Shown here piece by piece: positions 15,527-58,989 of a stretch of 64,000 nucleotides of DNA. This DNA is from Chlamydiota bacterium (GTDB taxonomy: Bacteria; Chlamydiota; Chlamydiia; Chlamydiales; Rhabdochlamydiaceae), in the NCBI GenBank assembly GCA_040388665.1, contig JAZKBL010000012.1:67390-131389 (forward strand). Direction: 5' to 3'. The position numbers and the translations under genes are program-made. Below the pieces are notes generated by a model. It saw only the letters and a program-made list of their open reading frames with translations. It had not been told where the DNA came from and searched no databases. Each line of letters starts with the position of its first letter. Positions within the stretch are counted from its first letter, which is position 1.

Positions 15527-16333
15527 ATGAAAAAAATCTTCGCCTTGCTTGCATTTGTATTTCAAACTGTCTACGGAACCGATCCGCTTGAAGAATATTT
15601 CGCCTATATCAAGCAACTTGCAGAGCCAAAAGGCAATTACAAAAACGGAGAGATTGAGATCGTTCTTGATCCTGCAGAAATCTCTCAGATTCAAAAAATA
15701 CAACAAGAGCGCCTACTGAAAAAAGGCTTTTCAAAAAAAGAGGCTACCGAATTTTCCCGCATCGGCGTTATTTCTCACGATCATTACTGGGTTTGGCTAC
15801 GCGATGCTGTTTATTTCCCGAAAAAAATTCCAGGAACTTATGACAGACTACTCTGGAAAAATGAATTAACCGCTAAATCCCCAGGCGTTGCTGTCCTGCC
15901 CGTATTGCCTTCAGGCAACATCGTGTTAAATCTTAATTACAGACACGCAACAAGGTCGTGGGAACTCGAGCTTCCACGAGGAAGAGTTGACCCCCAAGAA
16001 ACCACTGAAAATGCCGCATTACGCGAAGTCAAAGAAGAAACTGGATTTGTAGCCTCTTTTTTAATTTTCTTAGGCGATATGGCACCAGATACTGGGGTAC
16101 TAGCGTCCGTCATACCTGTCTTCATGGGAAAAATTACAAGCAAAGAAGCTTCTAATCCAGATTACTCTGAAGCCATCGCCGATGTCCTTTCTTTCACCAA
16201 AGAGGAATTATCAAAAGGTCTTATTCAAGGTTTCTTAGAAGTCTCAATTGAGGGCAAAAAACAAAAAGTCCCCTTGCGTGATTCGTTTTTAACCTTTGCC
16301 TTATTTCAAGCAGAACTCCGCAAACTTCTTTAA
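15527..16333 (+). CDS. NUDIX hydrolase with N-terminal signal peptide
   Basis: Nudix box 'GRVDPQETTENAALREVKEETGF'. Start trimmed to ATG 15527 (MKKIFALLAFVFQTVYG). Confidence 0.8.
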   Translation: MKKIFALLAFVFQTVYGTDPLEEYFAYIKQLAEPKGNYKNGEIEIVLDPAEISQIQKIQQERLLKKGFSKKEATEFSRIGVISHDHYWVWLRDAVYFPKKIPGTYDRLLWKNELTAKSPGVAVLPVLPSGNIVLNLNYRHATRSWELELPRGRVDPQETTENAALREVKEETGFVASFLIFLGDMAPDTGVLASVIPVFMGKITSKEASNPDYSEAIADVLSFTKEELSKGLIQGFLEVSIEGKKQKVPLRDSFLTFALFQAELRKLL

Positions 16334-16477
16334 AAAAATAAAATATTATTTTTTTTCTTAAGCTGATGATTAACAACTAATTAACTCATATTATCTAATA
16401 ATTTACACATATTATACATAAATTAATTACAATTTTTAGTAGAATCGTACAAAACTACTTTAATTAATATGTAACTT

Positions 16478-19400
16478 ATGATAAATAATATAATTATTTT
16501 TAATAATTCAATTAACAATCAATTACAACCCTCTAATATAGAGGCACCTGAGATTTTAGAGCAAAATCCAATCCTCGAAGGTTATAGCAGCTCTGATGCA
16601 GCGGCTATCATCTTTCATTTATTCAATGCGCAATACATAAATTTTCAATCCAACTCAAAAACAACATCAAGTTTTCTCCCTTTGAGTTTCCTCATCCAAG
16701 AACTTGAAACACTTTTAGACCATCCAAAACTCAAAGAAGAACGGCACAATCTTGAAGAATTAATCATCTCTTATCGTTGCTCTTATACCGTAGGCCAATG
16801 GTTTGAACACATAGCAACGAATAAAGATGCCGTACGCGGACAGATCCTAGACTATCTTAAAAAACATGGCTGGATCTCCATTCCAACAGGTTACGCTGCA
16901 GAGCCCTCAGGGCACCGCATAACACTCTATCTCACCCTCGAAGAAAAACGGGGAAAAACCTATGTCAAAGGCAAAATCGCCAATCTAGGAGAAGGTCTTA
17001 ATAACCATCTTGAACATTATATCGGTGCAACAAAAACCTATTACGAACCTTGGCTAGAACTAGATAAAGTTCCTTTGGCAAAACTGGAATCTACTCCCTT
17101 CTTCGATCTACTTTTAGAATTACAACAATTAACACATCCTGATGGCGAAAAAACCTACTATTGTATCGAAGATTTCTACAACATACTCCTTCCCGCATGG
17201 CCGGGAATGATTTCTATGACAGAACATCCCATGCCTGCAACGAAACAACGTACAGGAGACTGCTCTCTAAAACCCTATCTTGTAGAACTCAATACAAAAA
17301 TAAGCGTAAAAACTGCTCGTTTTATTAAGTTGCATTTGACCAAGAAAAGCATAGAGTTGCTACTAGAGCATCCCGAGCTCACGCAATCTCTCTATAAAAC
17401 TGTTGAAGAAACCCTGCAAAAACTGATGCGGCGCGCACTTAAATTACAGAAAAAGGGAGATCTCAATGAAAAAGAGATTCAAGAGTATATTAACTTTACG
17501 CTAAAGAGCCAACTTGCGCTTAAAAAGATCCACCAAGATTCCCTATCACTTGCTAAACAGCACACTTTAGATTTCTCTCTTGTCCGCGACCTCTCTGAAG
17601 AAGGAGAGCTCATTTTCACGCAAAAAACACCTCTTGTTTTGGAAAATTCAGTAGAAAAAATAAAAGCTGAAGCCCCTGTAGCTACACATTGGATAGCAAC
17701 TCTTGTTAAAGACGCTGCAAAGAGCGTCAATGATGCCATGAAAAAATCAGATTACAATGAGTGCATGCGGCTGATTATAGATACTTTTGAAAAATTACCT
17801 CCAGCTACTGATCTTTATTGGAAAACTCAAATGACACCTAAGGTCATGAAGGGCATCAAAACGCTCCATCAAAGATTTCATTACGTTACTGAATACAAAA
17901 TTTTTAAAAAAGAAGAGCACATCTATATCACTCCAACAATGGCAATCATTGCGCTCAAAGCATTTGCCATCACTGTTGCATCAGGAAGCATGCTCGGGCT
18001 CCCTCAAGATTTCGTGCATTTTTTTGCAGGGTCTTTATTAAAGCGGATTGAGGAAGCACAAAACCATTACCGTCCCTTAACTCCTTTTCAAGCCAACGAA
18101 TACCGTTCTTCTTTAAAGATTTTGAAAGAAGCCAGTCAACTCGATTCTCCTACTCTTAAAATTACAACGCCTCAGCTCGATCAATATGGGATCCACCATA
18201 GCCACGTCGTTAGCTCCCAACAATTTGAAACGCCTCGCGATGTTTTTAATGACCCTTACATTAAATTTTTAAATACACTTATCACAGAAAAAAATGAAGC
18301 CAAGTTCGAAAAATTTAAAAGGCCTCATGCAACAAGAGAATACCTAGCAATCCATCACATGGGCTTAGTTGCATTGAATAATATTGGTTGTTACAGCCTC
18401 ATCGATATGTATGAGCTCTCTATCTTATTCTTTTACTTAAGCAGTGGAGTTTTTGATACCGACTCAAGCTTAACTCAAGGTAGACCACTTCTTGATAAGA
18501 AAAAAATTCCAGGATATGTTCTAACGGTGTTTAAAGAATGGGGTATTGAAAAAAGCGAAGCTCAAACAACCCGTGAAGTGATTGAGGGGCTCTTCTTAAG
18601 TGCACATCATCGCTTGGCTGACCCTAAAGTGCTTGATGAACTTCTTAGCTCTGACCTCTCTAACATTCGAAGCCAGAATGAACTCCTCTCTTTAACCCCC
18701 AAATCAAAAAAAATTGCACCCCCACTCTTCAAAGACCTCCTGCTCGGAAGGCTTTACCCCGATCTTGCAGTTCCCCTATGGATCGATTATCTTTCTCAAC
18801 ATACAAACACACTTCAAGCTCCAACCCTTCAAGCCTTTTTATCGTTAGCTATTTTTGCACGCATCCCAGGAACGGATGATTTCGTCATAGAAAAGGTGAT
18901 GCGAGACAATAGTCTTATCAAGGAGCGTCTTTTCGAATTCTTGCGCTCTAGAATCAAAAAAACCGCTACGGAGCAATTTCTTGACATCCATTTTCTTTAT
19001 CTTAGAGTCTATGTGCACTCTCTCTTGTTCGCTAAGGAAGCAGGAGTTAATCTAGAATCAGAAATCTCTTTTTTAAAAACCCGCCTTGAGACACTTTTAA
19101 CGAGTAAAAAATATTCAGAAGAGGCAAGACAGCTCATTGGGTGGCAGCTCACAGCGCTGTTTACCTACTTGCGTGCATGGGGTGACGAATTAACTGATTT
19201 TTGTAATCGAGCCTACAATCTTGTCAAAGAAATCCCTATTACAACCGACTCTGAAGTGATTTCTCAGGAATACCGCTATGCAGAACACATCCTCTCCCAC
19301 TTGGACCTCCAACAAAAAGCCAAAATCCCTTCTTGGATCATCTCTGACTCTAAATTTCCTTACCGAACAATCACTTCCATCAAAACATCAGAAGATAAAC

Positions 19401-22400
19401 TCTCCTTCATAAATGAATATCAAGAGAGGATCTATCTCACTTTTGATGAGGAAAAAAAGGAATTTTATCTTCATCAAAAGTTTACAACGCTTGAGGGTAA
19501 CATCGCTCTTTTCACATTAGCAGATAAACCGCCCACAAGCTCTGTCTTTTCATACAAAAATCATCCATGTGTCGATGGCTGCCTTGCAAGCCAAGCGCGT
19601 TACTTTGTCAGAATAGATGATAAAGGCTCTATGGAGGCTGTATGCACAGATCTTAGCGGAAAAGAAATTTTGGCGCGCATGGATAGCACAAAAATTTATC
19701 CGGCTAATGCAGATCGCTCTTTACATCTTATGACCAATTTATCTGCCCCTCCACCCATTTGCACACGCATTTTTCCTCTTTATGGCCAAAAAGAAACCCT
19801 TTGCTACAAAAATGAACATCATGAAATCGTAAAAATTAGCATCCCCAAATATGACCTTCACTTCACAAGAGATCTTTTAAGAACAGAACAGTGGTACTGT
19901 TCTAAGCTCCCCGGATATTTTCTTGATGAAAATGATCAACATCCAACTCTTGAACCTCATAGTCATTACCTGCGGCTAAAAAGTAAAACAGGATCTGGCA
20001 TCATTCTAACATTCGATCATCTGCTTCCCCACGAACGCTCCATCATCCCTCCAGAGGATCCTTGCCTAATGAAATCCAAGGCAATCCCAAGACAACATCC
20101 TCGCCTCTTAATTTATCCACTAGATAGCACAGGTAAAATTAAACCTTCTCAAGAGGTTTATGAAAGTCTTTATCTTATCTATCTTACGCTTATGAAAAAG
20201 GACTACACAGAAGCGCAGGAGCTCATTTTAAAGTTAAAACGATTAGGAAAGGAATGGGGTGAGGAGGAATGCAACCTCTTTAACTTGTTTAACCCTCAGC
20301 AGATCACACAAAAAGATCGAGATTTTCATCCGGCAGCAGCAGCGCTTCGTTTGCAGCTTAAGATCATAGAACATGCTTCGGTTAATGAAATGAAGCTATC
20401 GGAAAACCAACTGCTTTGGCTAAAAAAGGATTATCTTAACTACATCGATCAGTGGAATAACACCATGCTCTACCGACTTTCTGAACAGGATGAAAAAATC
20501 CTTTTACGACTTATCAGCACTAAAAACGAGCTCGAATGTTTACAACTGTCTCAACGCGAAAATAAATATGCAGAGCTCAAAGAAACACCTCTTTATCATC
20601 AAACTAAAATCACTCCCTCTAAAAATAAATCACAGAAAACAGATGGCTTTACTTGGCTTAACCTCGAGCGCTTTCAAACAATGAAAACCCATCTTTTAAA
20701 CCCCTTGCCCATTACCTCTCATTTAAGACCAGGACCTAACTTCACCCTTAATTTTCTTTACTACTACAACTTATTATACGGTTCTGAAGCCCACGAAAAA
20801 CAAGAGGTCATCAGGATTTTACAATGCTGCGCTCATGATCCTCATCCAGAATCTCAAGATGTCAGACAAATACTCTTAGAGCTCATTAAAAATCCTAGTA
20901 AAATGCCAGAACTACAAAAAATCATCGCTACCGCAGAAAAAGACATAAAAAAACTTCCGCAATTTTTAAAAGATCTTTTGCCTGGGGGAGCTTCTAAAGC
21001 ATCAAGTTTTTCTGAAGTATTTCTTACAAGAACAAGGAATAACACGTGGACTATCAAACAGCCTCTTGAACCAACGCTCCCATGCAGCCTATCAAAAATA
21101 CCACAACGATCTCATCTTATATGTGAAAAAGAAAAACTTCCTAAAATCCTTATCAACAAAGGGTGTTTACTACAACAAGACAACAATGCAGCAAATAAGC
21201 AAAAGATAGAAAATCTTCAAAATTTAAAAGTCGTCTTCTCCTCTATTCCCACGGATAGTCCCTGTGTCAAAAGAGCAAGCAATAGACTCATCGAAGGGAT
21301 TGAAGAAATGCAAGAAGACCTGTCCTCAGAAAAAGCACAAATTTCCTACCATATCAATTTAGATAAAAAAAGTAGAAAGGAGTTATTTAAGCAGCTCACA
21401 CTTCATCATGAAATCCAAAAAACAGAAATGATCCTATACAAAAAAAAGATTTACGAATCCTTTGAAATAGATTCCCCTCTCTTAAAAGCAGAACAACTCG
21501 GAGGATTGCTCCCAAGCCTTAAATTCCGCGAGATTCTGCTTGCTGTTATTAATGATGATGCTACGCAGATTCATAAAGCCCTTCCGACCAAAATACCTAG
21601 CCTACTTACAAGACAGGTTACACGCTATCTTCTCGCCGCAACACAAAAGCAGCACTATGAACGCGCTCTCAAAAACTTGGAAGATCTCAATCAAGCCATG
21701 AGCGATGGAGAAAAGACAAATACAGCTGACAACAAACTTGTTCACTCTCTTCTTGCCAAAAGAGCTTATACTAAAACAGAAGACTTATACGCTCTTTTCT
21801 TTGAATATGCTTCAAACATCCGGTTGCGCAAAGAGCAGTATACAGCTTATCAAGAACTTTCTAAAACAGATCATCTAGAAAATATCCAATTGGAAGCGCC
21901 TACAGGTTTTGGAAAATCCTCTACTGTCATTGCTCTTTGGTTATTAAAGATAAGCCATGTACACAAAACAGCGCTCATGACGCTACCTCCTGCACTACTG
22001 CCAAGTGTCCTAGCGCAGCTTTACTCGATTCTTGGCACTCATTTTGACAAATCATTTTTCGTAATTAAATTTGAAAGAAACCAGGGTAACAATTTTGCAT
22101 TCCTAAAAAAGCTGAATACGCAGTTAGATGATGCTCAACGTAAAAATAAAATCCTTCTCATCTCCATCGATCACCTGCATCGCTTGACAACTCTTCAACT
22201 CAAACAAAATTTACATGAATATGGTGATTTAAGTATATTAAGAGAACTCGTCCTTTTGCGTAAAACTCTAAAATTTGAAATTTCAAGCTTTGTCGATGAA
22301 TCCAAAGAGTGTTTTGATGTGAGACACCGCTATGATTATGCAATCGGCGCTCCTATCAAAATTTCTCAAAACGAATGTCAAAAAACAGACTTGATCTATA

Positions 22401-24862
22401 ACATGCTCCTCACAGAAGAAATTCTAGAACAATTCAATTTTGAGTTTCTTCCAGAATTTTTTGATCTTAAGAAAAAAAGTATCACCATAAAAAACTATAC
22501 AAAAAAACTGCTCCCTCTCCTTGCAAGTAAAGCAATTAACATACTGCAGCTTCCAGAAGAGATCGCTCAAATCGCTCTACAAGACCTTAAAGAAATTAAG
22601 CTTACTGACGCTGATCGATTACGTCTTAATACATTTTTAGATCAACATCCTTTAATTAAAAAAGAGTACAGGCATTTTCACAAACAACTGAACCTCCATC
22701 TTAAGAATACTCTTAACCGCAACTGTGGCGAACATTATGCACTTATACCCGAGGCATCCATTCCACTAGCGCGCCCGATGCGGCATGGTAAAATTAAAAA
22801 GAACTCAGAGTTCTCTACACTTGATGAATTGAAAAATTTCACTGTACAAGCTAACTTAAAAGTTTCTCTAAAACAATCTCAAGTCGCAAATTTCATCTTT
22901 CAGCTTGCAGCACATCTTATAGATCATGAAAACACCCTTGAACCGTCGGGTATCAACGCTTTTTATCAACTGATTGCCCATCAATTAAAGCTACCCACGA
23001 AACCTAAAAATCTCAATGCTGCACACATTTCTACCATCACAGAATTTTTAAACGACAAAAAAAACATCAAGTACAAAATCCAATTCATCACACAAACCAT
23101 ACTTCCGCAGATTATTTACTATAATGAAAAAGCATCAAGTGGCTCTTTCCAATTAATCGATGCGATCAAGCAGGTCAATTCCGCATCTGGAACGGTTGAT
23201 CCCGATGTACTTCCCCCCTCTGTTCGAACAATAGAAAAAAAATCAGCGCCCATTGGCAATTTATTCGCTCTATGGCAACACTCACAAGAGCGGATCTACA
23301 TCAATAAAGGAAGCACACCAAAGGAAATCCTTGAACAGATTATTGATTTAGATCCACATGCACGCGTTATTCCTGATGGAGGAACTCTCACTCGAGGTCT
23401 TTCTGAAAAAGAAATTACAACGACTATTTTAGAAAAAACAAAAAATGCAGAGCCCCCCGTAAACGGTGTGGCCTTTTTCGATGACGAAGGAAAATTATGG
23501 GTCCAATCTCGAAATGGAATGAGCGCAATGGATGGAAGCGATATTCCCTTAAAAGAGCTTTTTATCTTTATTCGTCAAAGTAACTGCCTTGGAGCAGACC
23601 TTACTATGCTTCCGTGTACACGAGCAACAATCACCATCAATCGCTACACCCCCCTTGACTTTCTCATCCAAACAGCTGGTCGCATGAGAGGGCTGCAGCT
23701 TGGACAAACATGCAGCATTACCTGCACTGAAGAAGATGCACAGGTCATCAAAGATTTTTTAAAAATACCAAAAAAGGCAGATCTTACCCTAACCCATATT
23801 TTCCAACACGCTGCAATTCTTTACGGAGAAATTAAAGGGCTTGATTACTTCTTTACCTTAAACCGTTTTTTAGCAAACGCCTCTGAGCAAATTTTTTGGA
23901 ACTTTCTTGATAAAAACACCCCTGCACAAGCGCGCAGGCTCTCCCTAAGAATGGATAGTCTCCTCGTAAGTTCCACAAGCGAAGAAGATGATGATGACGA
24001 TGCTATCAGCAACTCTGAAATCGATATCTCGTTAGCTGTTGAACACTTGCAAAATAGTTATCGTAAAAAATTAATGACTGTTCAAAAAAATGTTTCTTTT
24101 GTCACATTCCCTATCGATCAAATCTTTGAGGAATTTAATCGTTTCCTCGACTACGACAAATTACCTTCTAAAATCATGATGAAAAGCGCGATGGGAGAAG
24201 AATGTAGCGTAGATATCGATGCAGACACAGATATCGCCGCTGATCAAGAAATGGAGTCACAAGCAGATTCCGAAGCCTCTACAATCACCACCTTTATACC
24301 TGCACAACCCGTTGAGTGGAATGAAGATTACGCAGATAAAAACAATTACAAACAAGCAGAAAGCCAGCTTGGCATTAAAATATTCCATTTTCCTAATGGT
24401 CATTTCGTATCAGATAATGAAGAAACAAATAGACAAGTACGCAAATCTTCAATCCAGTGCCTGATCATGAAAGATCGAGTCACACAAGAGATGCGCTATG
24501 CACCTCTTGATGCGCAGGATGCACATCTTATCTATAATAGCATGCTCCATAAGGGAGGCTCTATAAAAGCTCCAAGCGACCCTTATCATGACTTTTATCT
24601 CATGTCAGGGGGCAAAATCATCGCGTTTGACGCTGAGTCATCTATTTTAAATAGGAAAGATGCGGCGTTTATAAAAATTTCCATCCTAAACAAAGTCCAA
24701 CGCGGATTACCTTTCCTCAACCAAAAAGAGTTAACACTGATTGAAACGCTCCTTAGAGAATATCCCGCGGATAAAATCGCATTCATCAATTTCGTCAAAG
24801 AATATCAAGCTGCCTTTCCCCAATTGAAATCCCTTACAACCTGGCTTCAAAACATGATTTAA
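16478..24862 (+). CDS. giant 2794-aa protein with P-loop NTPase/helicase-like core in its C-terminal third; candidate secreted effector
   Basis: Uninterrupted 8385-nt ORF. Walker A-like 'LEAPTGFGKSST' (21896-21919), 'FVDESKE' (22292-22303), 'QTAGRMRGL' (23669-23692). Acidic tracts near the C-terminus. AT-rich leader. Confidence 0.85.
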   Translation: MINNIIIFNNSINNQLQPSNIEAPEILEQNPILEGYSSSDAAAIIFHLFNAQYINFQSNSKTTSSFLPLSFLIQELETLLDHPKLKEERHNLEELIISYRCSYTVGQWFEHIATNKDAVRGQILDYLKKHGWISIPTGYAAEPSGHRITLYLTLEEKRGKTYVKGKIANLGEGLNNHLEHYIGATKTYYEPWLELDKVPLAKLESTPFFDLLLELQQLTHPDGEKTYYCIEDFYNILLPAWPGMISMTEHPMPATKQRTGDCSLKPYLVELNTKISVKTARFIKLHLTKKSIELLLEHPELTQSLYKTVEETLQKLMRRALKLQKKGDLNEKEIQEYINFTLKSQLALKKIHQDSLSLAKQHTLDFSLVRDLSEEGELIFTQKTPLVLENSVEKIKAEAPVATHWIATLVKDAAKSVNDAMKKSDYNECMRLIIDTFEKLPPATDLYWKTQMTPKVMKGIKTLHQRFHYVTEYKIFKKEEHIYITPTMAIIALKAFAITVASGSMLGLPQDFVHFFAGSLLKRIEEAQNHYRPLTPFQANEYRSSLKILKEASQLDSPTLKITTPQLDQYGIHHSHVVSSQQFETPRDVFNDPYIKFLNTLITEKNEAKFEKFKRPHATREYLAIHHMGLVALNNIGCYSLIDMYELSILFFYLSSGVFDTDSSLTQGRPLLDKKKIPGYVLTVFKEWGIEKSEAQTTREVIEGLFLSAHHRLADPKVLDELLSSDLSNIRSQNELLSLTPKSKKIAPPLFKDLLLGRLYPDLAVPLWIDYLSQHTNTLQAPTLQAFLSLAIFARIPGTDDFVIEKVMRDNSLIKERLFEFLRSRIKKTATEQFLDIHFLYLRVYVHSLLFAKEAGVNLESEISFLKTRLETLLTSKKYSEEARQLIGWQLTALFTYLRAWGDELTDFCNRAYNLVKEIPITTDSEVISQEYRYAEHILSHLDLQQKAKIPSWIISDSKFPYRTITSIKTSEDKLSFINEYQERIYLTFDEEKKEFYLHQKFTTLEGNIALFTLADKPPTSSVFSYKNHPCVDGCLASQARYFVRIDDKGSMEAVCTDLSGKEILARMDSTKIYPANADRSLHLMTNLSAPPPICTRIFPLYGQKETLCYKNEHHEIVKISIPKYDLHFTRDLLRTEQWYCSKLPGYFLDENDQHPTLEPHSHYLRLKSKTGSGIILTFDHLLPHERSIIPPEDPCLMKSKAIPRQHPRLLIYPLDSTGKIKPSQEVYESLYLIYLTLMKKDYTEAQELILKLKRLGKEWGEEECNLFNLFNPQQITQKDRDFHPAAAALRLQLKIIEHASVNEMKLSENQLLWLKKDYLNYIDQWNNTMLYRLSEQDEKILLRLISTKNELECLQLSQRENKYAELKETPLYHQTKITPSKNKSQKTDGFTWLNLERFQTMKTHLLNPLPITSHLRPGPNFTLNFLYYYNLLYGSEAHEKQEVIRILQCCAHDPHPESQDVRQILLELIKNPSKMPELQKIIATAEKDIKKLPQFLKDLLPGGASKASSFSEVFLTRTRNNTWTIKQPLEPTLPCSLSKIPQRSHLICEKEKLPKILINKGCLLQQDNNAANKQKIENLQNLKVVFSSIPTDSPCVKRASNRLIEGIEEMQEDLSSEKAQISYHINLDKKSRKELFKQLTLHHEIQKTEMILYKKKIYESFEIDSPLLKAEQLGGLLPSLKFREILLAVINDDATQIHKALPTKIPSLLTRQVTRYLLAATQKQHYERALKNLEDLNQAMSDGEKTNTADNKLVHSLLAKRAYTKTEDLYALFFEYASNIRLRKEQYTAYQELSKTDHLENIQLEAPTGFGKSSTVIALWLLKISHVHKTALMTLPPALLPSVLAQLYSILGTHFDKSFFVIKFERNQGNNFAFLKKLNTQLDDAQRKNKILLISIDHLHRLTTLQLKQNLHEYGDLSILRELVLLRKTLKFEISSFVDESKECFDVRHRYDYAIGAPIKISQNECQKTDLIYNMLLTEEILEQFNFEFLPEFFDLKKKSITIKNYTKKLLPLLASKAINILQLPEEIAQIALQDLKEIKLTDADRLRLNTFLDQHPLIKKEYRHFHKQLNLHLKNTLNRNCGEHYALIPEASIPLARPMRHGKIKKNSEFSTLDELKNFTVQANLKVSLKQSQVANFIFQLAAHLIDHENTLEPSGINAFYQLIAHQLKLPTKPKNLNAAHISTITEFLNDKKNIKYKIQFITQTILPQIIYYNEKASSGSFQLIDAIKQVNSASGTVDPDVLPPSVRTIEKKSAPIGNLFALWQHSQERIYINKGSTPKEILEQIIDLDPHARVIPDGGTLTRGLSEKEITTTILEKTKNAEPPVNGVAFFDDEGKLWVQSRNGMSAMDGSDIPLKELFIFIRQSNCLGADLTMLPCTRATITINRYTPLDFLIQTAGRMRGLQLGQTCSITCTEEDAQVIKDFLKIPKKADLTLTHIFQHAAILYGEIKGLDYFFTLNRFLANASEQIFWNFLDKNTPAQARRLSLRMDSLLVSSTSEEDDDDDAISNSEIDISLAVEHLQNSYRKKLMTVQKNVSFVTFPIDQIFEEFNRFLDYDKLPSKIMMKSAMGEECSVDIDADTDIAADQEMESQADSEASTITTFIPAQPVEWNEDYADKNNYKQAESQLGIKIFHFPNGHFVSDNEETNRQVRKSSIQCLIMKDRVTQEMRYAPLDAQDAHLIYNSMLHKGGSIKAPSDPYHDFYLMSGGKIIAFDAESSILNRKDAAFIKISILNKVQRGLPFLNQKELTLIETLLREYPADKIAFINFVKEYQAAFPQLKSLTTWLQNMI

Positions 24863-25731
24863 GGCCAGCACTCTTCATAGGAAAAATCAAACTCGTCGGT
24901 AAAGCCAACGCGCGCTTTGTCGAGTCTATATCGAGAACCCGTTACTGCTCTTTGATCAAGAGTGTGCATCTCTTCAGTAGAAAGGACAAAGTCCATAACA
25001 TTCAGGTTTTCTTGCATATGGCGCGCATCTTTGCTCCCTGGAAGAGGGATGCACCCATGCTGAACAATCCATCTAAGCGCTATCTGACACGCGGTCTTTC
25101 CGTGCTTCTTTCCCATCTCAATCAGAACTTCATCTTCATTCATACGGCCTAAATTTAAAGGCCTCCACGCTTGAATGCCAATCTTGCATTCTTTACAAAA
25201 TGCAAGCAGCTCTTTGTCATAAAAGTAAGGGTGCATTTCTACTTGAATCCACGTGATAGAAACTCCCACCTCTAATGCTTTTTTTAAATGATTAACAGTA
25301 ACATTGCTTAGACCAATGTGGCGGACTTTTTTCTCTTGGACAAGTCCCCTCATTGCTGTGAGCGTTTCTTTGATAGGGATCTGGCTATTGGGCCAATGCA
25401 GCAAATAAGCATCAAGGTAATCCGTTTGCAGCAGCTGCTGCGTCTCTTGCAAGTCTTTACGTAAATTTTCCTTAGCCTGCATATCATGCCACACTTTTGA
25501 AATGATATAGAGCTGGCTACGATCTAATTTCTTTAAACCCTGGGCCATCCCTTCAAAGTTGTTATAGTAGGTAGCCGTATCAATGATCCGGTAGCCAATA
25601 TTAGCAGCTTCAATTAACGCCTTAGCACAAATTTCGCCAGTTAAACGATAGGTTCCAAGCCCTACCATCGGGTACTCTTTTCCTTCAATCCGGCATTTAC
25701 CTCTCTCAATATCAAGTTCTACCATCATCAC
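24859..25731 (-). CDS. aldo/keto reductase (2,5-diketo-D-gluconate reductase-like)
   Basis: AKR pattern 'GLGTY', 'IDTATYYNN', 'LDAYLLHWP', 'IGLSN'. About 290 aa. Confidence 0.9.
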   Translation of the reverse strand: MMMVELDIERGKCRIEGKEYPMVGLGTYRLTGEICAKALIEAANIGYRIIDTATYYNNFEGMAQGLKKLDRSQLYIISKVWHDMQAKENLRKDLQETQQLLQTDYLDAYLLHWPNSQIPIKETLTAMRGLVQEKKVRHIGLSNVTVNHLKKALEVGVSITWIQVEMHPYFYDKELLAFCKECKIGIQAWRPLNLGRMNEDEVLIEMGKKHGKTACQIALRWIVQHGCIPLPGSKDARHMQENLNVMDFVLSTEEMHTLDQRAVTGSRYRLDKARVGFTDEFDFSYEECWP

Positions 25732-28965: not shown

Positions 28966-29814
28966 ATGTTTCTTTGGAAATGGGTTACTAGATTTTTTCT
29001 CTTGTGTGCATTGGCTCTCTATGCCGAGGTAGAATCTACACGCGATGTCGCACTATACACAACCTTTCGTCCAAAATATCCCGAAGAACTTCTTGAGCTG
29101 TTCAGAATAAAATTCACTCCAGATGGTTCAGGACGGTTGCTTGATTTAGGATGTGGATCAGGACAGATCACGTTCTTACTAGCGCCTTTTTACAAGGAAG
29201 TGGAAGCTCTTGATATCGATGACCACATGATTCAAAAAGCTATAGAACAAGCTAAAACCAAAAACGTAACGAATATAGCCTGGCTTCATCAAGGCGCGGA
29301 AGAGACCTCTTTAGAATCGGAAAAATTTGATTTGATCACTATTGCAACAGCCTTTCATTGGATGGATCGGCCGGTTGTTCTTAAAAATGCCTACACATTA
29401 TTGAAAGAAGGTGGCGGCATTGCCATTTTCTGCGCCAAAAGCTGGTGGAGCAGTACAATTGCCTGGCAACAAGAAATCATTAAGCTCATTCAGCATTATC
29501 TAGGAACAAATCAACCCTACTACCCACCAGCCTTTGTCCATAACTCATCCCACGCGGCTCTTCTACATGCAGCGCATTTTGAAAATATCCAAAGCTTCAC
29601 TGTAACAACACCACATTTTTGGTCGCTAAAAACCATTTTGGGATATCTTTATTCTACAGCGTTCTGCAATCCCTCACGCTTTGGCAAACAATTAGAGAAG
29701 TTTGAAAAAGACGTAGAATCGATTTTTTTAAGGCATCACCCTTCTGGAGAATGTAAGGAAGACTTCCCCTTTCACGTCCTCATTGGCTATAAATCTTATC
29801 CAGGTTGTTTATAG
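28966..29814 (+). CDS. class I SAM-dependent methyltransferase with signal-like N-terminus
   Basis: Motif I 'LLDLGCGSGQITFLLA'. Start taken at ATG 28966 (MFLWKWVTRFFLLCALALYA). Confidence 0.75.
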   Translation: MFLWKWVTRFFLLCALALYAEVESTRDVALYTTFRPKYPEELLELFRIKFTPDGSGRLLDLGCGSGQITFLLAPFYKEVEALDIDDHMIQKAIEQAKTKNVTNIAWLHQGAEETSLESEKFDLITIATAFHWMDRPVVLKNAYTLLKEGGGIAIFCAKSWWSSTIAWQQEIIKLIQHYLGTNQPYYPPAFVHNSSHAALLHAAHFENIQSFTVTTPHFWSLKTILGYLYSTAFCNPSRFGKQLEKFEKDVESIFLRHHPSGECKEDFPFHVLIGYKSYPGCL

Positions 29815-31171
29815 CGCGGCCCATATCAATCCCCTTTTTTAAAACGGGAGCGTAGAGATCGCCCATTTTCTTAAGACGCTTGAGCGTATTTTTGATAGTA
29901 TAGTTAAGAGGATCAAGCCCTAGTTTTACCTCACTCCACTTCAGAGGAGTTGAGACAGGAGCTTCAGGGCGCGCTCTTACGCTATAGGGAGCTGCAAGCG
30001 TCTGTCCAAAATTGTTTTGGTTACAGTCGATATAAACCTTCCCCTTTCTTTTCAAAAGAGAACGCTCTAAGGTCGATGATTGTGGAATGCGTTCATGGAC
30101 AATGCGTGCAATAAGTTCTGCAAACTTTTTAGCTTGAGCGTATGTATATTTAGCGCCAAGTGGAACTGCTACATGTAGCCCAGTAGCACCAGATGTTTTG
30201 CAATAGCTTGGTACTTTTATCTCATCTAAGACTTCATGAAGCACTTGCGCAACTTTGATGACTTTAGAAAACGACGCACTCTTGGGATCTAGGTCAAAAA
30301 CAACAAAATCTGGATTCTGCAACTTTTTTACTCTGGAAAAAAAGGGATGAATTTCAATGCAGCCTAAATTCGCTGCAAAAAGAAGACTGTCTTTATCTTG
30401 GATGAGCAGGTAGTTAACGTTTTTCTGTCCATGTTTAATGCTTGCCGTTTTAATAAAGCTAGGATGCTCTTTTAAATTTTTTTGAAAAAAAGATTCCCCT
30501 TTAATGCCATCAGGAAAACGTCTTAACGATTCAGGCCGGTCTTTAAGGTGAGGAAGAAGCCAATCAGCCACTTCTGCATAATAGTTAAGAAGATCTTCTT
30601 TCGTGTACTTTTCTTTTGGCCAGAACATTTTTTCTAAATTGGACAGTTGTGCATTTGCCGGCGATTTTTGAAGAGATGCACTCTCTTTCTTTTTTATTAA
30701 AAGCCACTCATTTTTATCGGAGGTCTTTAATCGAATAAGATGAAACGTTCCCTGCAATTTTTTACCTTCAAGAGAGAAATGAATAACCCCTTTTTTTAGT
30801 CCTTGTTTAATCGCTTTTTCCGAGTCCTTTGCACTTGTATCATTCACCGAATATGTGCCCTTGTCCCAAATGCGTACCGTTCCAGCCCCATAACCAGAAG
30901 CAATGATGCCTTCAAAATCTTTGTAACTATAAGGATGATCTTCAACCATAATTGCCAAACGTTTAACTGTTGGATCTGAAGACGGCTCTTTCGGAATTGC
31001 CCAGCTCTTTAATACGCCCCCAACTTCTAACCGCAAATCGTAATGAAGATGCTTCGCATGATGCTCTTGAATCACAAACTGAAGTTGCAAGCTTTTTCTC
31101 TTATGCATTTTTGCAGCGGGCTCTGAAAAAGACTTTAGATCCCTTTTGGCTTTATATTTAGTAAGATTCAT
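29780..31171 (-). CDS. ligD: LigD-type NHEJ protein: 3'-phosphoesterase domain + polymerase/primase domain, no ligase domain
   Basis: N-terminal 'FVIQEHHAKHLHYDLRLE..GVLKSWAIPKEPS' (PE domain). C-terminal 'RFPDGI.GESFFQK', 'VVFDLDP', 'KTSGATGLHVAVPL' (AEP primase-polymerase domain). Confidence 0.85.
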   Translation of the reverse strand: MNLTKYKAKRDLKSFSEPAAKMHKRKSLQLQFVIQEHHAKHLHYDLRLEVGGVLKSWAIPKEPSSDPTVKRLAIMVEDHPYSYKDFEGIIASGYGAGTVRIWDKGTYSVNDTSAKDSEKAIKQGLKKGVIHFSLEGKKLQGTFHLIRLKTSDKNEWLLIKKKESASLQKSPANAQLSNLEKMFWPKEKYTKEDLLNYYAEVADWLLPHLKDRPESLRRFPDGIKGESFFQKNLKEHPSFIKTASIKHGQKNVNYLLIQDKDSLLFAANLGCIEIHPFFSRVKKLQNPDFVVFDLDPKSASFSKVIKVAQVLHEVLDEIKVPSYCKTSGATGLHVAVPLGAKYTYAQAKKFAELIARIVHERIPQSSTLERSLLKRKGKVYIDCNQNNFGQTLAAPYSVRARPEAPVSTPLKWSEVKLGLDPLNYTIKNTLKRLKKMGDLYAPVLKKGIDMGRAINNLDKIYSQ

Positions 31172-39375: not shown

Positions 39376-42300
39376 TTAAGGATGATTTTCAAGGATGTGC
39401 TGCGCGCTTGACTCCAGATCAACTGATTCATTTTCAACAGGTAGCTCTTGAGTAGGGTCGTATAAGATGGCGCACGTGTTTTCGGGGATTGAATAAACTC
39501 CGTGTCCAGCATTATCGAGGGTGTCTACATATTCAAAAGGGCCTTTTGTGGAAAATGATTCTAAAGACCCTTTGTAAAGGTTTTTACTTTGAATATATTT
39601 TTTGTTTGAAACGAGGTAGAGATTAAGTTCTTTTGCTTTGTTTTTTGCGAATTTGAGAAGGGCTTTTTTTAGGGGAAGAGGATCACCATGTAGAGAGTAA
39701 AACTTATCTAATAAAAGGAGAGGTCTTTTATTTGCTTCATCCCAAAGAAGGCGTATGAGAAAGCGTGCGATTTGTTCTCCCTTCTCATTTTTTATTGCAA
39801 GGGCACGAATTTTTCCATCTGAAATATAACCTAAAATGTGAGTCCTATTTTCACCTCCATTGATGCGCAGACATCCTCCCGTTTCTTTTCCAAGAAGCAT
39901 TAGATCGGAAAAGTCACCGGTACAACTAAGCGTCCATCCTTCATGTTTTTGTGAATCAAGCATCAAAGGTTCGTTTTTGTCGCATAAGTAGTTGTTAACG
40001 AGATCATCAAATCCATTATCGCGTATTTTGTTAAGATGTTCTGTGTCGTTTCTCCACTCTGAAAATCTATTTTCAATGAGGGCTAAACAGCACTGTTTAA
40101 AAGTTTCAAGAGCAGCTGATTTGTTATATTCGAATCCACTTAAGAAGCGCTCGAAATTTAATTGATTTAAGACTCCTAAATAGGTGAAAATTGCATTTCC
40201 TGCTCTTAAGCTATCGGTAATTTTAAAAAAACTTTCTTCAACATGTTCTGTATAATCAGACCCAAAAAAATCTTTAGGTACGCTTTTAAATAAAGCTTTC
40301 AAAGGGTCTAAAGAGATGGGAGAGTTATGAATAGCAAGCTCAGAGGCTTTTCCTAGATCTATCAAAGCAGTTGATAAAACAAGCCTATTAATATACTCAT
40401 CGTCGTTATTTTTTTTAGCTATTGCGAATTTTTGTTTTTCTTCTTTCTTTTTAGAAGCAATCTTTTTTGAGCCTGGTTCAGTTCTTTGTTTTTTTATTGG
40501 ATTGAAGAAAATTTGTTGTAGAAGTGTTTCTTTGTTTTCACGTAAGAATTTTTCGTTCCGTTGAAGACTTAGTAAAAATGACATCAGCTGTGTTTTATGA
40601 GTTCTATCGTTAAAAAGATGGCTAGCAGATTTTAGACTTTTACTCCATTCATTGCGTGAGGTATTTTGCAATTTGGAGAGAGTTAAGTCCCCTAAAAAGA
40701 AAGCAAGGTCTAGTTTCGGAGGTAAGGGATTATTTTTCCATGTTTCCCATTGGTTAGATAGGATGTGCTCAGACAGAGATCTACGTACAACAAAGAATTG
40801 TTCTTCTGCTAGAATCTTGTTTTTTGAAAATGCGCGGATGAGACGGGTTAGCCGTGGTTGAATTTCTGGATGTTCTGATATAAGCCCCATGTATATTATT
40901 GCAGATCCTGCGCTGGAGACGCCGATTTTTCGAAGATCTTCAAAGACAGGTTTTAATTCAGGAATTAGATCGCCGCAAATGTCTAAAAAACAATGGGAAC
41001 TTAGTCCAAAAGGAAAATTTCCATAAAGCTTGTGGACAATGATATCAATAATCTTGAGCGCCTCTGTCTTATTGGCTATTTTAATGATTTCAAAATTTCT
41101 AACTAATTCAACCGGATGTTTTTCTGCGATGAGCTCCAAATTCAGGATATTTAACATGAGAGCATGTTGCTCTGAATTGAGATCTCGAAATTGATGAAAG
41201 TTGGTAATAACGAGTAAAGAGGCATTTTTTGCAAGAATTTTGACAAGTTGAGAGCAGCGCTCTGAATTGTCAATCCCAACTGGACTTAAATTAAATAGAT
41301 CAAAGTGAGGAACTATTAGTTCAGGTTTTGTTTCTGCAAAGCTCTCTAATGGTAACATCTCTGAGACTTCAAAAATCTGCTCAATGCTGAGTTGTTCAGA
41401 CTTGCGCATAGAGAACAATATTGAGAAATTTTTAATAAGATCTTCAGGGGCTTTTTCTGCCAGGATTTTCAAGATTTGAAAGCTGTGATTTGGATCAAGT
41501 TTTTTTAATGCATCGGCTTTTTTGATTACTTTTTTAGGAGCTTTTTCTGCTAGGATTTTCCAGATTTGAAACTTGTGATCTGGATCAAGTTTTTTTAATG
41601 CATCGGCTTTTTTGATTACTTTTTCAGGGGCTTTTTCTGCTAGGATTTGCCAAAGTTGAAAACTGTGAATTGGATCAAGATTTTTAAATTCGTAAGATTT
41701 TTCGATTACTTTTTCAGGAACTTTTTCCGATAGGATTTGCCAAATCTGAAAGCTGTGAGTTACATCAAGCTTTTTAATAAACAAGTAATAATTTTTGATG
41801 GTTACTTCAGGGACTTTTTCCGCAAGGATTTCCCAGATCTGAAACCTGTGATCTGGATCAAGGCCTTCAAATTTATAAGATCCTTCAACCGTCGCTTTAG
41901 GAACTTGTTCTGCAAGGCTTTTCCAGATCTGAAGGACTTGTATTGGATCAAGCTTTCTGATAAATTCGTAAGATTTTTTGATTGCTGCTTCAGGGACTTT
42001 TTCTACTAGGATAGTGAGGATCTGAAAATATTGCTCAGAATTGAGCATTTCAAACCTGTATAAGCTATTGAGTAACTCAAGAGGATCTCTTTCTGTAAGA
42101 GCCAAAGCGAGCTGGAAGCAATGATCATTGTTTTGAGATTTAAAGTGCTTTAAATAGATAAGCGCAGTTGACCAGTCGGAGTTTGCTATTTTTGAGATTC
42201 GTTTAAAACGTTCTTCATCTGCAATATTTATTATTTCTTTTTTAATAACATGTTGAATGAACTTGTCTTTTAAAACTTCTTCATGTTTGATTTCAGGGTT

Positions 42301-42408
42301 TTTGTTCCAAACTTTTGTTGCATAAGTAGTTAGAGTTTCATAGGTTAAAAAACCAAACGTCTCACAAATGGGTGCTATTAATTTTTTTAAATTATTATCT
42401 ATCGACAT
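39376..42408 (-). CDS. 1010-aa tandem-repeat protein (about 8 x 30-aa helical repeats); candidate effector
   Basis: Repeats of consensus 'FQIW.ILAEK.PEKVIKK...LKKLDP.H.' across roughly aa 97-332. AT-rich leader. No catalytic motif recognised. Confidence 0.8.
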   Translation of the reverse strand: MSIDNNLKKLIAPICETFGFLTYETLTTYATKVWNKNPEIKHEEVLKDKFIQHVIKKEIINIADEERFKRISKIANSDWSTALIYLKHFKSQNNDHCFQLALALTERDPLELLNSLYRFEMLNSEQYFQILTILVEKVPEAAIKKSYEFIRKLDPIQVLQIWKSLAEQVPKATVEGSYKFEGLDPDHRFQIWEILAEKVPEVTIKNYYLFIKKLDVTHSFQIWQILSEKVPEKVIEKSYEFKNLDPIHSFQLWQILAEKAPEKVIKKADALKKLDPDHKFQIWKILAEKAPKKVIKKADALKKLDPNHSFQILKILAEKAPEDLIKNFSILFSMRKSEQLSIEQIFEVSEMLPLESFAETKPELIVPHFDLFNLSPVGIDNSERCSQLVKILAKNASLLVITNFHQFRDLNSEQHALMLNILNLELIAEKHPVELVRNFEIIKIANKTEALKIIDIIVHKLYGNFPFGLSSHCFLDICGDLIPELKPVFEDLRKIGVSSAGSAIIYMGLISEHPEIQPRLTRLIRAFSKNKILAEEQFFVVRRSLSEHILSNQWETWKNNPLPPKLDLAFFLGDLTLSKLQNTSRNEWSKSLKSASHLFNDRTHKTQLMSFLLSLQRNEKFLRENKETLLQQIFFNPIKKQRTEPGSKKIASKKKEEKQKFAIAKKNNDDEYINRLVLSTALIDLGKASELAIHNSPISLDPLKALFKSVPKDFFGSDYTEHVEESFFKITDSLRAGNAIFTYLGVLNQLNFERFLSGFEYNKSAALETFKQCCLALIENRFSEWRNDTEHLNKIRDNGFDDLVNNYLCDKNEPLMLDSQKHEGWTLSCTGDFSDLMLLGKETGGCLRINGGENRTHILGYISDGKIRALAIKNEKGEQIARFLIRLLWDEANKRPLLLLDKFYSLHGDPLPLKKALLKFAKNKAKELNLYLVSNKKYIQSKNLYKGSLESFSTKGPFEYVDTLDNAGHGVYSIPENTCAILYDPTQELPVENESVDLESSAQHILENHP
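41413..42120 (-). repeat. in-frame 90-bp tandem repeat array inside the 1010-aa gene
   Basis: About 8 units. The units around 41479-41661 are nearly identical at the DNA level (ttttctgctaggattttccagatttgaaa...). Confidence 0.8.
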
Positions 42409-53968: not shown

Positions 53969-54050
53969 TGGGGGCGGTGTGACTCGAACACACGGACTCC
54001 GAAGAGGAGGGATTTACAGTCCCTTGCAATTGCCACTATGCGACACCCCC
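53969..54050 (-). tRNA. tRNA-Tyr (anticodon GTA), long variable arm
   Basis: Minus-strand read: GGGGGTG acceptor, anticodon arm AGGGA-CTGTAAA-TCCCT, variable arm CCTCTTCGGAGTC, T-loop TTCGAGT, 3' CGCCCCC-A. No encoded CCA. Confidence 0.9.
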
Positions 54051-54065
54051 GAAACAGGAAAGATA

Positions 54066-54138
54066 TGCTGGAGAAAGGAATTGAACCCTCAACCATCCGA
54101 TTACAAGTCGGGCGCTCTACCAATTGAGCTACTCCAGC
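54066..54138 (-). tRNA. tRNA-Thr (anticodon TGT)
   Basis: GCTGGAG acceptor, D-arm GCTC-AATTGGTA-GAGC, anticodon loop CTTGTAA, T-loop TTCAATT, 3' CTCCAGC-A. Confidence 0.9.
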
Positions 54139-54186
54139 ACGAGGAAAGATGAAAGTGTAACAAAGTGTTGATTTTGTTACAAGAGT

Positions 54187-58735: not shown

Positions 58736-58808
58736 GGGCGTATAGCTCAGTTGGTAGAGCTCCTGTCTTACACACAGGTGGTCATAGGTTCGAGTCCTTT
58801 TGCGCCCA
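58736..58808 (+). tRNA. tRNA-Val (anticodon TAC)
   Basis: GGGCGTA acceptor, D-arm GCTC-AGTTGGTA-GAGC, anticodon arm CCTGT-CTTACAC-ACAGG, T-loop TTCGAGT, TGCGCCC-A. Confidence 0.9.
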
Positions 58809-58848
58809 AGTTTACATAACGGCAAACGTAAGTTGTGCCCACTCCATT

Positions 58849-58922
58849 GCGGGAGTAGTTCAATTGGTTAGAGCACCGCCCTGTCACGGCGGAAGTTGCG
58901 GGTTCGAGCCCCGTCTCCCGCG
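58849..58922 (+). tRNA. tRNA-Asp (anticodon GTC)
   Basis: GCGGGAG acceptor, anticodon arm CCGCC-CTGTCAC-GGCGG, T-loop TTCGAGC, CTCCCGC-G. Followed by a T-run. Confidence 0.9.
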
Positions 58923-58989
58923 CATTTTTTACTGTACAACCAAACATCTTGAGTACTATCATAAAAATTGAAAACTAAGACTAGACAAT

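Follow-up and report, generated by a model that had tools for sequence, protein, structure and literature searches.

The giant gene and its surroundings

The window analysed here is a stretch of 64,000 nucleotides of a Chlamydiota contig (JAZKBL010000012.1, family Rhabdochlamydiaceae), and by far its longest open reading frame (ORF) encodes a protein of 2794 aa (Table 1). The frame starts with ATG and remains unbroken to its stop codon, as a first-pass annotation had stated in describing an uninterrupted 8.4-kb ORF, the largest of the window. From the base composition of the window, 2794 stop-free codons would be expected by chance with a probability of about 1e-75. NCBI holds an identical protein, entered as [quoted passage not shown]. 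The intact frame and the retention of all catalytic residues conserved throughout the family led us to reject a reading of the ORF as a pseudogene or an artefact. The giant ORF is thus a genuine gene.

The gene upstream, a NUDIX gene, ends at 16333, and the gap up to the giant ORF is filled by an intergenic leader. The leader had been called extremely AT-rich, and its A+T content is indeed reached by only 0.18% of 144-nt windows. Sigma-70-like matches in the leader are weak and do not exceed shuffle expectation. The first 30 residues of the encoded protein are rich in Asn and Ile, and its first charged residue is at position 22, features that are at most suggestive of a type III secretion signal. 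The GC and GC3 contents of the giant ORF are those of neighbouring genes, giving no sign of recent transfer. The gene is flanked by unrelated metabolic genes; no secretion or chaperone gene was found among the neighbours, no nuclease or partner genes at the locus, and no second copy of either the N-terminal (head) domain or the ATPase within the window.

The protein probably joins a previously undescribed catalytic domain, likely to be Cys-based, to a helicase-type ATP motor. After the head domain comes a scaffold of ~1,350 aa with two conserved blocks, and beyond the ATPase the chain continues through an acidic linker into a C-terminal region that is again conserved.

Table 1. Coordinates of the giant gene, its leader and the features of its product (all on the + strand; positions are those of the window)
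Feature	Position	Strand	Residues and description	Basis
Leader, intergenic	16334..16477	+	144 nt, 84% A+T	
Giant ORF	16478..24862	+	2794 aa and stop	Identical NCBI protein, intact frame
Head domain (N-dom)	16802..17551	+	aa ~109-358, alpha/beta	Profile search, AlphaFold model, conservation
His146	16913..16915	+	Candidate general base, start of strand beta2	148/149 conserved; strand from model
Asn169	16982..16984	+	Candidate third triad residue, just after strand beta3	141/149 Asn, 3 Asp
Gln257-x4-Cys262	17246..17263	+	QRTGDC; candidate oxyanion-hole Gln and nucleophile Cys	Conservation, model
Conserved block 1, middle region	18725..19477	+	aa ~750-1000, no domain assignment	Family conservation profile
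Conserved block 2, middle region	19775..20497	+	aa ~1100-1340, no domain assignment	Family conservation
RecA1-like lobe, first part	21764..22372	+	Pfam DUF3638 match, including conserved Gln1787	Pfam, conservation, model
Walker A / motif I	21896..21919	+	APTGFGKS, aa 1807-1814 (G1810, G1812, K1813)	96-100% in 115 relatives
Walker B / motif II	22292..22303	+	VDES, aa 1939-1942 (D1940, E1941)	100% conserved; strand end in model
Helical insertion in RecA1	22373..23110	+	~250 aa (aa 1966-2211)	Secondary structure of model
DUF3645-equivalent segment	22727-22849	+	aa ~2084-2124, inside helical insertion	Alignment to fungal P0039
Return to RecA1, motif III-like	23111..23212	+	S-G-T (G2238, T2239)	Conservation, model
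RecA2-like lobe	23225..23767	+	aa ~2250-2430	90-100% conservation; Foldseek
Motif V	23591-23599	+	G2372-x-D2374, in RecA2-like lobe	Conservation
Motif VI	23669-23692	+	QTAGRMRG, aa 2398-2405	Q2398, R2402, R2404 100% conserved
Acidic-rich linker	23960..24337	+	aa ~2495-2620, poorly conserved	Conservation, composition
Conserved C-terminal region	24365..24859	+	aa ~2630-2794 (F2636, G2743, E2751)	Family conservation

An SF2-type ATP motor

The sole Pfam family in the giant protein is DUF3638 (PF12340), which matches aa 1763-1965 with an E-value of 2.6e-16 and 60.1 bits, against a gathering threshold of 31 bits. The first-pass annotation had noted a resemblance to the DUF3638/DUF3645 module; the DUF3638 part of this is correct, whereas the Pfam DUF3645 profile (PF12359, a 33-residue model) gave no match at E<=1, although a homologous stretch at aa ~2090-2122 can be aligned with the DUF3645 segment of the fungal protein P0039. 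As Pfam recognises only DUF3638 and NCBIfam gave nothing relevant, the earlier statement that most of the protein lacks a recognisable domain is correct as far as these two databases go.

Walker A, Walker B, motif VI and Cys262 all lie at the positions first read for them, and the nucleotide-binding and arginine-finger motifs of an SF2 ATPase are all intact. Counted over 115 full-length relatives, the ATPase motifs are 96-100% conserved, the Lys of the GKS (K1813) included, and the RecA2-like lobe additionally contains a conserved D2300-x-G2302. When the AlphaFold model of this segment (pLDDT 78.5) was compared with the PDB by Foldseek, 53 matches were obtained at E<=1e-3, and the 50 listed are without exception SF2 ATPases, including DinG/XPD, SecA, Snf2/ISWI/INO80, MDA5/LGP2, Dicer, FANCM/Hef, UvrB and DdmD. 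Motif conservation and the model thus bear out the original suggestion of an SF2-like NTPase: the P-loop core is, as modelled, an SF2-type ATPase with two RecA lobes, of the DUF3638/DUF3645 type, and is predicted to hydrolyse NTP.

The giant ATPase resembles the XPD/DinG helicases and SecA in its pair of RecA lobes, in having motifs I, II, III, V and VI with a conserved Gln ahead of motif I, and in the large insert within its first lobe. Cysteines of an FeS cluster, an Arch domain and a PPXD domain, on the other hand, were not identified in it, and there is no match to these proteins at the sequence level. TM scores to XPD/DinG and SecA are only 0.25-0.36, and Snf2, RIG-I-like, Hef and UvrB ATPases match about equally well, so that the ATPase cannot be assigned to an SF2 subfamily.

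A conserved Cys/His domain near the N-terminus

The head domain is ~230 aa in size, with a profile match spanning aa 115-343. Its AlphaFold model (pLDDT 82.4, pTM 0.71) places a six-strand beta region ahead of several helices. Four of its residues, His146, Asn169, Gln257 and Cys262, are 93-99% conserved across the family, and the giant protein keeps every one. His146 belongs to a family motif GH-A-x-YYE and is predicted to sit on a beta-hairpin; Asn169, in a motif YN-x-G-x-G, is predicted to follow the next strand. Cys262 (nt 17261-17263, within KQRTGDCSLKPY) lies 116 residues beyond His146 and, in the model, directly precedes a helix at aa 264-274. The proposal of Cys262 as a nucleophile in a Gln-x4-Cys context proved unexpectedly well supported by conservation, since among 149 domain sequences the Cys is found in 145, Gln257 in 138 and Gly260 in 140. 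His177, E214 and D232 are conserved as well.

The order His, Asn, Gln, Cys looks like that of a circularly permuted enzyme of the papain type, and we infer from it that the head domain may be a thiol enzyme, either a hydrolase or a transferase, whose layout is papain-like but circularly permuted. This reading draws on motif order and predicted secondary structure only, because the domain has no match in Pfam, among PDB sequences or among PDB structures. The Cys with its His, Gln and Asn helpers, which characterizes papain-like cysteine peptidases of clans CA-CE, is present by conservation, but likeness in sequence or fold to a recognised member of these clans was not found in Pfam, PDB sequences or Foldseek comparisons with the PDB. 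Pfam searches with 47 members of the head-domain family at E<=10 gave no recurring family, and a search of PDB sequences with a profile of the same 47 sequences was empty. PDB sequence searches with the whole protein or with a full-length profile of four sequences gave nothing meaningful. Constructs from 10 members in which the permutation was undone, with the Cys segment placed ahead of the His segment, had no match in Pfam. The best Foldseek match of the model in the PDB has an E-value of 0.08, TM scores are at most 0.27, and the matches are spurious helical or unrelated folds. The link to a protease or deubiquitinase family that had been suggested for the head is therefore not borne out by Pfam, PDB-sequence or Foldseek PDB matches. 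The layout of the predicted strands and the order of the residues led us to reject assignments to clan CD and to VTD.

In clan CE (Ulp1/SENP, ChlaDub, RavZ), the permuted NlpC/P60 enzymes (LRAT/PLAAT) and PPPDE, the catalytic residues occur in the order His-(Asp/Asn/His)-Cys. In these enzymes a strand begins with the His, the polar partner comes after the strand that follows, and the Cys lies ~90-120 residues further on at the N-terminus of a helix, with a Gln a few residues before it. The candidate residues of the head domain resemble these families in order and placement, but none of the three appears in the domain's Pfam, PDB-sequence or listed Foldseek results. We therefore treat the likeness as a lead to be followed and not as membership.

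Relatives in chlamydiae, eukaryotes and giant viruses

The giant protein belongs to a large family in environmental Chlamydiota. A profile search found the head domain in at least 1,538 protein clusters (at 50% identity), 776 of them at E<=1e-10, and most cluster representatives are 2,900-3,300 aa long. Among 165 head-domain proteins that were retrieved, 128 have the ATPase as well; the remaining 37 measure 250-2,026 aa and are possibly fragments. Named relatives come from MAGs of Chlamydiales, Parachlamydiaceae and Waddliaceae and sit in a bacterial chromosomal context, one of them with mobile-element genes on its flanks. Often there are several paralogs: three giant genes stand in tandem at one locus (L003), and a genome scan whose narrow alignment samples one subfamily only found more than one locus in the same MAG. 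Three family members (P0008, P0010 and P0012) carry ankyrin repeats. When the head-domain alignment was used in a k-mer search for homologs, only two proteins came up, and they added nothing new.

In eukaryotes, the giants of fungi, ciliates and microsporidia that combine DUF6606, DUF3638 and DUF3645 are, like the chlamydial protein, of ~3,000 aa, and likewise carry their ATPase at about aa 1,800-2,450. Walker A, Walker B, motif VI and the DUF3645-equivalent segment are common to both, at only ~17-28% identity. The two differ at the N-terminus, where the fungal giants have DUF6606 and neither the His nor the Cys of the head domain. Pfam DUF6606 (PF20255) does not match the giant protein, and alignment of the head-domain profile with fungal DUF6606 N-termini by hhalign was not significant (E 0.11); homology is not claimed. 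The giant gene is a variant of the DUF3638 giant ATPases with a previously undescribed, putative catalytic head. The literature examined assigns no function to DUF3638 giants.

Structural relatives with significant scores were found for the head domain only in BFVD, by Foldseek, and are proteins of Klosneuvirinae: Harvfovirus A0A3G5A476, Fadolivirus A0A7D3V923, and Hyperionvirus A0A3G5ABW2 and A0A3G5AAS1. These match with E-values of 5e-7 to 9e-5, a probability of 1.0 and a query TM of up to 0.55; they are 16-20% identical to the head domain and were compared by predicted structure alone. Pattern scans of IMG/VR, one for the head domain and one for the Walker region, detected no viral loci, and the giant-virus link is consequently one of BFVD structures.

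A proposed host-directed enzyme and its alternatives

With a probability of about one half, we read the giant protein as a multidomain enzyme in which a thiol head is carried by an ATP-driven SF2 motor and which is likely to act in the cytosol of the amoebal host. Fuelled by ATP, the motor would grip, translocate or remodel a polymer, either nucleic acid or protein, while the tethered thiol domain would cleave or modify this substrate or a partner. Coupling of the two activities is suggested purely by their co-occurrence. The cytosol of a eukaryotic host would be the most likely place of action, given an obligately intracellular lineage, an expansion of paralogs, fusions of some members to ankyrin repeats, and relatives in eukaryotes and giant viruses. 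The host-directed and eukaryote-derived readings of the first-pass annotation are plausible given the chlamydial host genome, the fungal relatives of the ATPase and the giant-virus relatives of the head; as a whole, that first interpretation is partly supported.

A more specific possibility, which we regard as unlikely though worth weighing, is that the head domain is a deubiquitinase (DUB) or a protease of ubiquitin-like (Ubl) modifiers, making the protein an ATP-driven effector by which ubiquitin would be removed from host targets or the inclusion. The conserved Cys/His/Gln/Asn set is typical of thiol isopeptidases, and relatives are named “ubiquitinyl hydrolase 1” in UniRef and BFVD. DUB classes are also unusually many in Chlamydia-like bacteria (PMC10643670, PMC9741609), consistent with the notion of a further one. 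Against this, the head domain matches no DUB family in Pfam or PDB sequences, and among the 50 Foldseek matches listed from the PDB there is no solved DUB, nor does a match of any kind reach E 0.001. Solved structures exist for CE, OTU, USP, UCH, Josephin, MINDY, ZUFSP and VTD. The name “ubiquitinyl hydrolase 1”, moreover, is equally attached to fungal DUF6606 proteins that have no Cys/His domain and lack its Cys and His; it appears to have been given automatically.

Somewhat less probable is a role within the bacterium itself, where the protein would act on nucleic acids as a helicase or translocase, for instance in defence, conflict or DNA repair, with the thiol domain as an accessory. DinG, CasDinG, XPD, UvrB and DdmD are among the top structural matches of the ATPase, giant proteins combining an NTPase with a peptidase are common in prokaryotic conflict systems, and the mobile-element genes beside one relative would suit such a role. 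The Foldseek matches are, however, generic to the SF2 core, with the protein translocase SecA at ranks 2-3, and no family of the PADLOC-DB defence HMMs matches the giant protein at E<=1. The metabolic flanks without nuclease or partner genes also argue against it, as do the relatives, which are otherwise eukaryotic for the ATPase and giant-viral for the head domain.

It is improbable that His146, His177, Asp232 and Cys262 instead bind a structural or catalytic metal, with no thiol nucleophile at the site. Two conserved His, one Cys and the acidic E214 and D232 are potential ligands, but a Gln-x4-Cys before a helix, an N-x-G-x-G turn and a single Cys seem more typical of thiol hydrolases. Least probable of all is a self-cleaving processing protease in the style of MARTX or the large clostridial toxins, which would free the ATPase after delivery: the protein is toxin-sized and its His precedes its Cys, as in clan CD processing domains, but the model has consecutive beta-strands without intervening helices and not an alpha/beta caspase-like fold, the spacing of His and Cys far exceeds the roughly 40-50 residues of clan CD enzymes, and no CPD structure is among the Foldseek matches listed.

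Implications for the family

DUF3638/DUF3645 giants occur widely among eukaryotes. In environmental chlamydiae they have a very large sister family, which joins the same motor to a conserved Cys/His domain with neither a Pfam entry nor a solved structural relative. The database name “ubiquitinyl hydrolase 1” should be regarded as unsupported for these proteins. Two candidate active sites that can be mutated, C262/H146 in the head and K1813/E1941 in the motor, offer handles on the function of the family. More speculatively, and at odds that we would put as low, the head domain might found a new class of Cys-dependent (iso)peptidase or acyl-transferase, with a fold absent from the PDB and tethered to an SF2 motor. 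The whole would then be an ATP-driven “extract-and-cleave” machine deployed in amoebal hosts by chlamydiae and perhaps by giant viruses, an armed counterpart of the eukaryotic DUF3638 giants. The head domain is in this sense a candidate new enzyme class among the effectors with which amoeba-associated bacteria and giant viruses are equipped.

A conserved Cys/His domain at the N-terminus

The 2794-aa product of the giant open reading frame carries, in its N-terminal α/β region (aa ~109-358, the head domain), a set of Cys, His, Asn and Gln residues that is intact and strongly conserved. A block at aa ~130-270 is common to the query and its first three relatives (P0002-P0004, ~23% identity), with G138, H146, P191, Y228, D232, Y234 and C262 invariant among them. 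In an exhaustive search of 1.84 billion cluster representatives, the profile built from this block hit 1,538 proteins with E ≤ 1e-3, of which 776 had E ≤ 1e-10; the majority are 2,900-3,300 aa long and have the domain at aa ~200-500. The head domain and an SF2 motor are kept together in this very large family: the ATPase is also present in 128 of the 165 head-domain proteins retrieved, and the 37 that do not carry it (250-2,026 aa) may be fragments. Across the family the consensus is GGW-G-P-GHA-YYE ... R-YN-G-G--YH ... D-Y ... PQ-SG-C-W-SL-A. The query diverges from it, for example with Tyr for Trp at 139 and Leu for Trp at 264, but keeps every candidate catalytic residue. The first-pass annotation had singled out C262 as a possible nucleophile in a Gln-x4-Cys context, and the counts for both residues in the homologs bear this out.

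Positions and conservation of features (head domain, 149 domain sequences; ATPase, 115 full-length relatives)
Feature	Position	Strand	Conservation or status
Giant ORF	nt 16478-24862	+	
Cys262 codon	nt 17261-17263	+	position confirmed
APTGFGKS	nt 21896-21919	+	position confirmed
VDES	nt 22292-22303	+	position confirmed
QTAGRMRG	nt 23669-23692	+	position confirmed
Aldo/keto reductase	nt 24859-25731	-	
LigD-domain ORF	nt 29780-31171	-	
1010-aa ORF	nt 39376-42408	-	
tRNA pair Tyr-GTA/Thr-TGT	nt 53969-54139	-	
tRNA pair Val-TAC/Asp-GTC	nt 58736-58923	+	
Head domain	His146		148/149
Head domain	Asn169		141/149 + 3 Asp
Head domain	Gly171 / Gly173		144/149 / 147/149
Head domain	His177		131/149
Head domain	Asp232		132/149
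Head domain	Tyr234		145/149
Head domain	Gln257		138/149
Head domain	Gly260		140/149
Head domain	Cys262		145/149 + 2 Ser
ATPase, Q-motif-like, 23 residues before P-loop	Gln1787		99%
ATPase	G1810 / G1812 / K1813		96-100%
ATPase	D1940 / E1941		100%
ATPase	G2238 / T2239		93-95%
ATPase	D2300 / G2302		98% / 91%
ATPase	G2372 / D2374		98% / 90%
ATPase	Q2398 / R2402 / R2404		100%

The AlphaFold model of aa 89-390 (pLDDT 82.4, >90 across most of the core) begins with a long helix, continues with six successive strands uninterrupted by helices, and ends in several helices. In this model, His146 opens strand 2, Asn169 follows directly after strand 3, and Cys262 lies two residues ahead of helix 264-274. 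His and Asn on neighbouring strands, together with Gln-x4-Cys at the N-terminus of a helix, are the leads to a predicted papain-type thiol-enzyme arrangement in which the His/Asn part comes first. The same order is found in clan CE proteases (Ulp1, ChlaDub, RavZ) and in permuted NlpC/P60 enzymes (LRAT/PLAAT, PPPDE). The motifs also resemble papain's 'Q..C-W' and 'H-A ... N-S-W-G', a likeness that is a lead only.

In Pfam searches of 47 members, up to E ≤ 10, no family recurred, nor did reversing the presumed permutation yield one, and the profile search of PDB sequences was empty. Foldseek matches of the model listed from the PDB comprised unrelated folds only (best E 0.08, TM ≤0.27). Both the consecutive strands and the distance of 116 residues between His and Cys speak against a caspase-like clan CD fold. 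Significant structural similarity was limited to four predicted structures of Klosneuvirinae giant viruses (Harvfovirus, Fadolivirus, Hyperionvirus; E 5e-7 to 9e-5, probability 1.0, TM up to 0.55), two of which bear the database name 'ubiquitinyl hydrolase 1'.

The SF2-type ATPase

The sole Pfam match of the query is DUF3638 (aa 1763-1965; 60.1 bits, cut-off 31); NCBIfam, PADLOC and PDB sequences gave no match. The nucleotide-handling residues, including the Lys of GKS, are near-invariant in the alignment of full-length relatives. AlphaFold modelled aa 1690-2480 (pLDDT 78.5, pTM 0.71) as two RecA-like lobes. A helical insertion of ~250 residues follows motif II (aa 1940) and precedes the motif III-like SGT (aa 2237-2239), which places the insertion in the first lobe. 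Foldseek returned 53 PDB matches to this model at E ≤ 1e-3, and every one of the best 50 is an SF2 ATPase; those listed include DinG/XPD/CasDinG, SecA, Snf2/ISWI/INO80/SWR1, MDA5/LGP2/DRH-1, Dicer-2, FANCM/Hef, UvrB and DdmD, at low TM-scores (0.15-0.36) and with no subfamily prominent among them. XPD/DinG and SecA, the two best-matching groups, have large RecA1 insertions, as does the query.

Together, the Pfam match, the conserved motifs and the structural matches confirm the SF2-like NTPase of the DUF3638 kind proposed in the first-pass annotation. Motifs and model alike show an intact SF2 motor, the SF2-like nature of which is no surprise. Residues ~2090-2122, inside the insertion, align with the fungal DUF3645 motif, although the Pfam DUF3645 model does not match the query.

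Remaining regions of the protein

Two further blocks (aa ~750-1000 and ~1100-1340) and the C-terminal region (aa ~2630-2794) are conserved across the family, and an acidic stretch (aa ~2495-2620) shows low conservation. None of these has a database match, consistent with the ~1800 aa previously described as lacking a recognisable domain. The query lacks ~100-250 residues that precede the head domain in most relatives. It has no signal peptide; residues 1-30 are Asn/Ile-rich with the first charged residue no earlier than position 22, a composition that would fit a type III secretion signal but proves nothing. The sole markedly hydrophobic stretch, a moderate one (aa 482-508, nt 17921-18001, PTMAIIALKAFAITVASGSMLGLP; Kyte-Doolittle 19-residue mean up to 1.8), may form a buried helix or associate with a membrane.

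The gene and its surroundings

The giant ORF is a real gene. It runs from an ATG without interruption and is far longer than any other ORF within the window, as first read; at the window's base composition, 2794 codons without a stop have a chance of ~1e-75. All motif and Cys codon coordinates match the translation. GC (0.39) and third-position GC (0.35) are similar to those of adjacent genes. The leader, the 144-nt gap after the NUDIX gene, is indeed extremely AT-rich (84% A+T, a value reached or exceeded in only 0.18% of equal-size windows). The product is already deposited: an identical NCBI entry is labelled 'MAG: DUF3638 domain-containing protein [Chlamydiota bacterium]'.

The flanks are housekeeping or metabolic and unrelated to the giant gene, with a methyltransferase, FAD oxidoreductase, alcohol dehydrogenase, PAP2 phosphatase and NUDIX hydrolase on the 5' side and a convergent aldo/keto reductase, then an MFS transporter, on the 3' side. 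The stop overlaps the end of the reductase by 4 nt (24859-24862), leaving no room for an intergenic terminator. No convincing promoter or terminator of the giant gene was found, matches being at shuffled-sequence expectation, and the gene looks monocistronic. The window holds no second copy of the head or ATPase domain.

Elsewhere in the window, the 1010-aa ORF, without Pfam match, occupies the lowest-GC patch (GC 0.35, GC3 0.30), where GC skew is opposite in sign to the remainder; this, too, could be a gene that is specific to the lineage or was acquired. A further ORF has LigD 3'-phosphoesterase and primase-polymerase domains (E 1e-89) and represents, in this Chlamydiota genome, a component of non-homologous end joining. 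Two tRNA pairs are also present.

Distribution and relatives

Named family members come from Chlamydiota or Chlamydiales MAGs. When one genome of each GTDB species was scanned with a subfamily alignment, 13 loci were found, several from one MAG: eight in MAGs titled Chlamydiales, Chlamydiae, Parachlamydiaceae or Waddliaceae, four in MAGs titled only 'uncultured bacterium', and one on a 1.3-kb contig binned as Verrucomicrobia. On a 2.05-Mb metagenome contig (L003, 1-15309), three DUF3638 giants of 3105, 3102 and 3481 aa form a head-to-tail tandem array, indicating local paralog expansion. Neighbours of other relatives are ribosomal and other core bacterial genes. One relative (P0161, 4108 aa) has IS605/IS630-type transposase fragments on both sides (contig L018, 3897-7097 and 20531-22167), which hints that some copies lie in mobile or rearranging regions. 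Three relatives (P0008, P0010, P0012; 2486-4268 aa) contain ankyrin repeats, a eukaryote-like interaction module frequent in effectors of intracellular bacteria.

Fungal giants (DUF6606 + DUF3638 + DUF3645) share the ATPase module with the query, but not the Cys/His domain. In fungal P0023-P0039, DUF6606 (N-terminal ~300 aa) occupies the same position, with QNA instead of GHA and without the conserved Cys. Profile-profile alignment by hhalign was topologically sensible and not significant (E 0.11); DUF6606 may be a decayed, inactive form of the Cys/His domain.

Proposed function

The literature mentioning DUF3638, as far as consulted, assigns it no function. The head-plus-motor architecture is near-certain. 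The head would act as a thiol hydrolase or transferase and the SF2 motor would engage a polymer (nucleic acid or protein), both sharing one target, most likely within the eukaryotic host; this overall picture has a probability of about 0.5, and its host-directed coupling is speculative.

That the head is a genuine deubiquitinase, as once suggested, seems unlikely: proteins that lack the Cys/His domain bear the 'ubiquitinyl hydrolase' label too, and the head matches no DUB family in Pfam or among PDB sequences. An intrabacterial helicase or defence role is doubtful given the absence of a PADLOC match and of partner genes. A metal site instead of thiol catalysis is improbable, since the motif style favours a thiol hydrolase, and so is a self-processing protease, against which the predicted fold speaks.

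What is new beyond the deposited DUF3638 label and the SF2-like motor is the recognition of the head domain itself, a domain missing from Pfam and PDB, with a near-invariant candidate active site, a family of 1,538 clusters and a link to giant-virus proteins.
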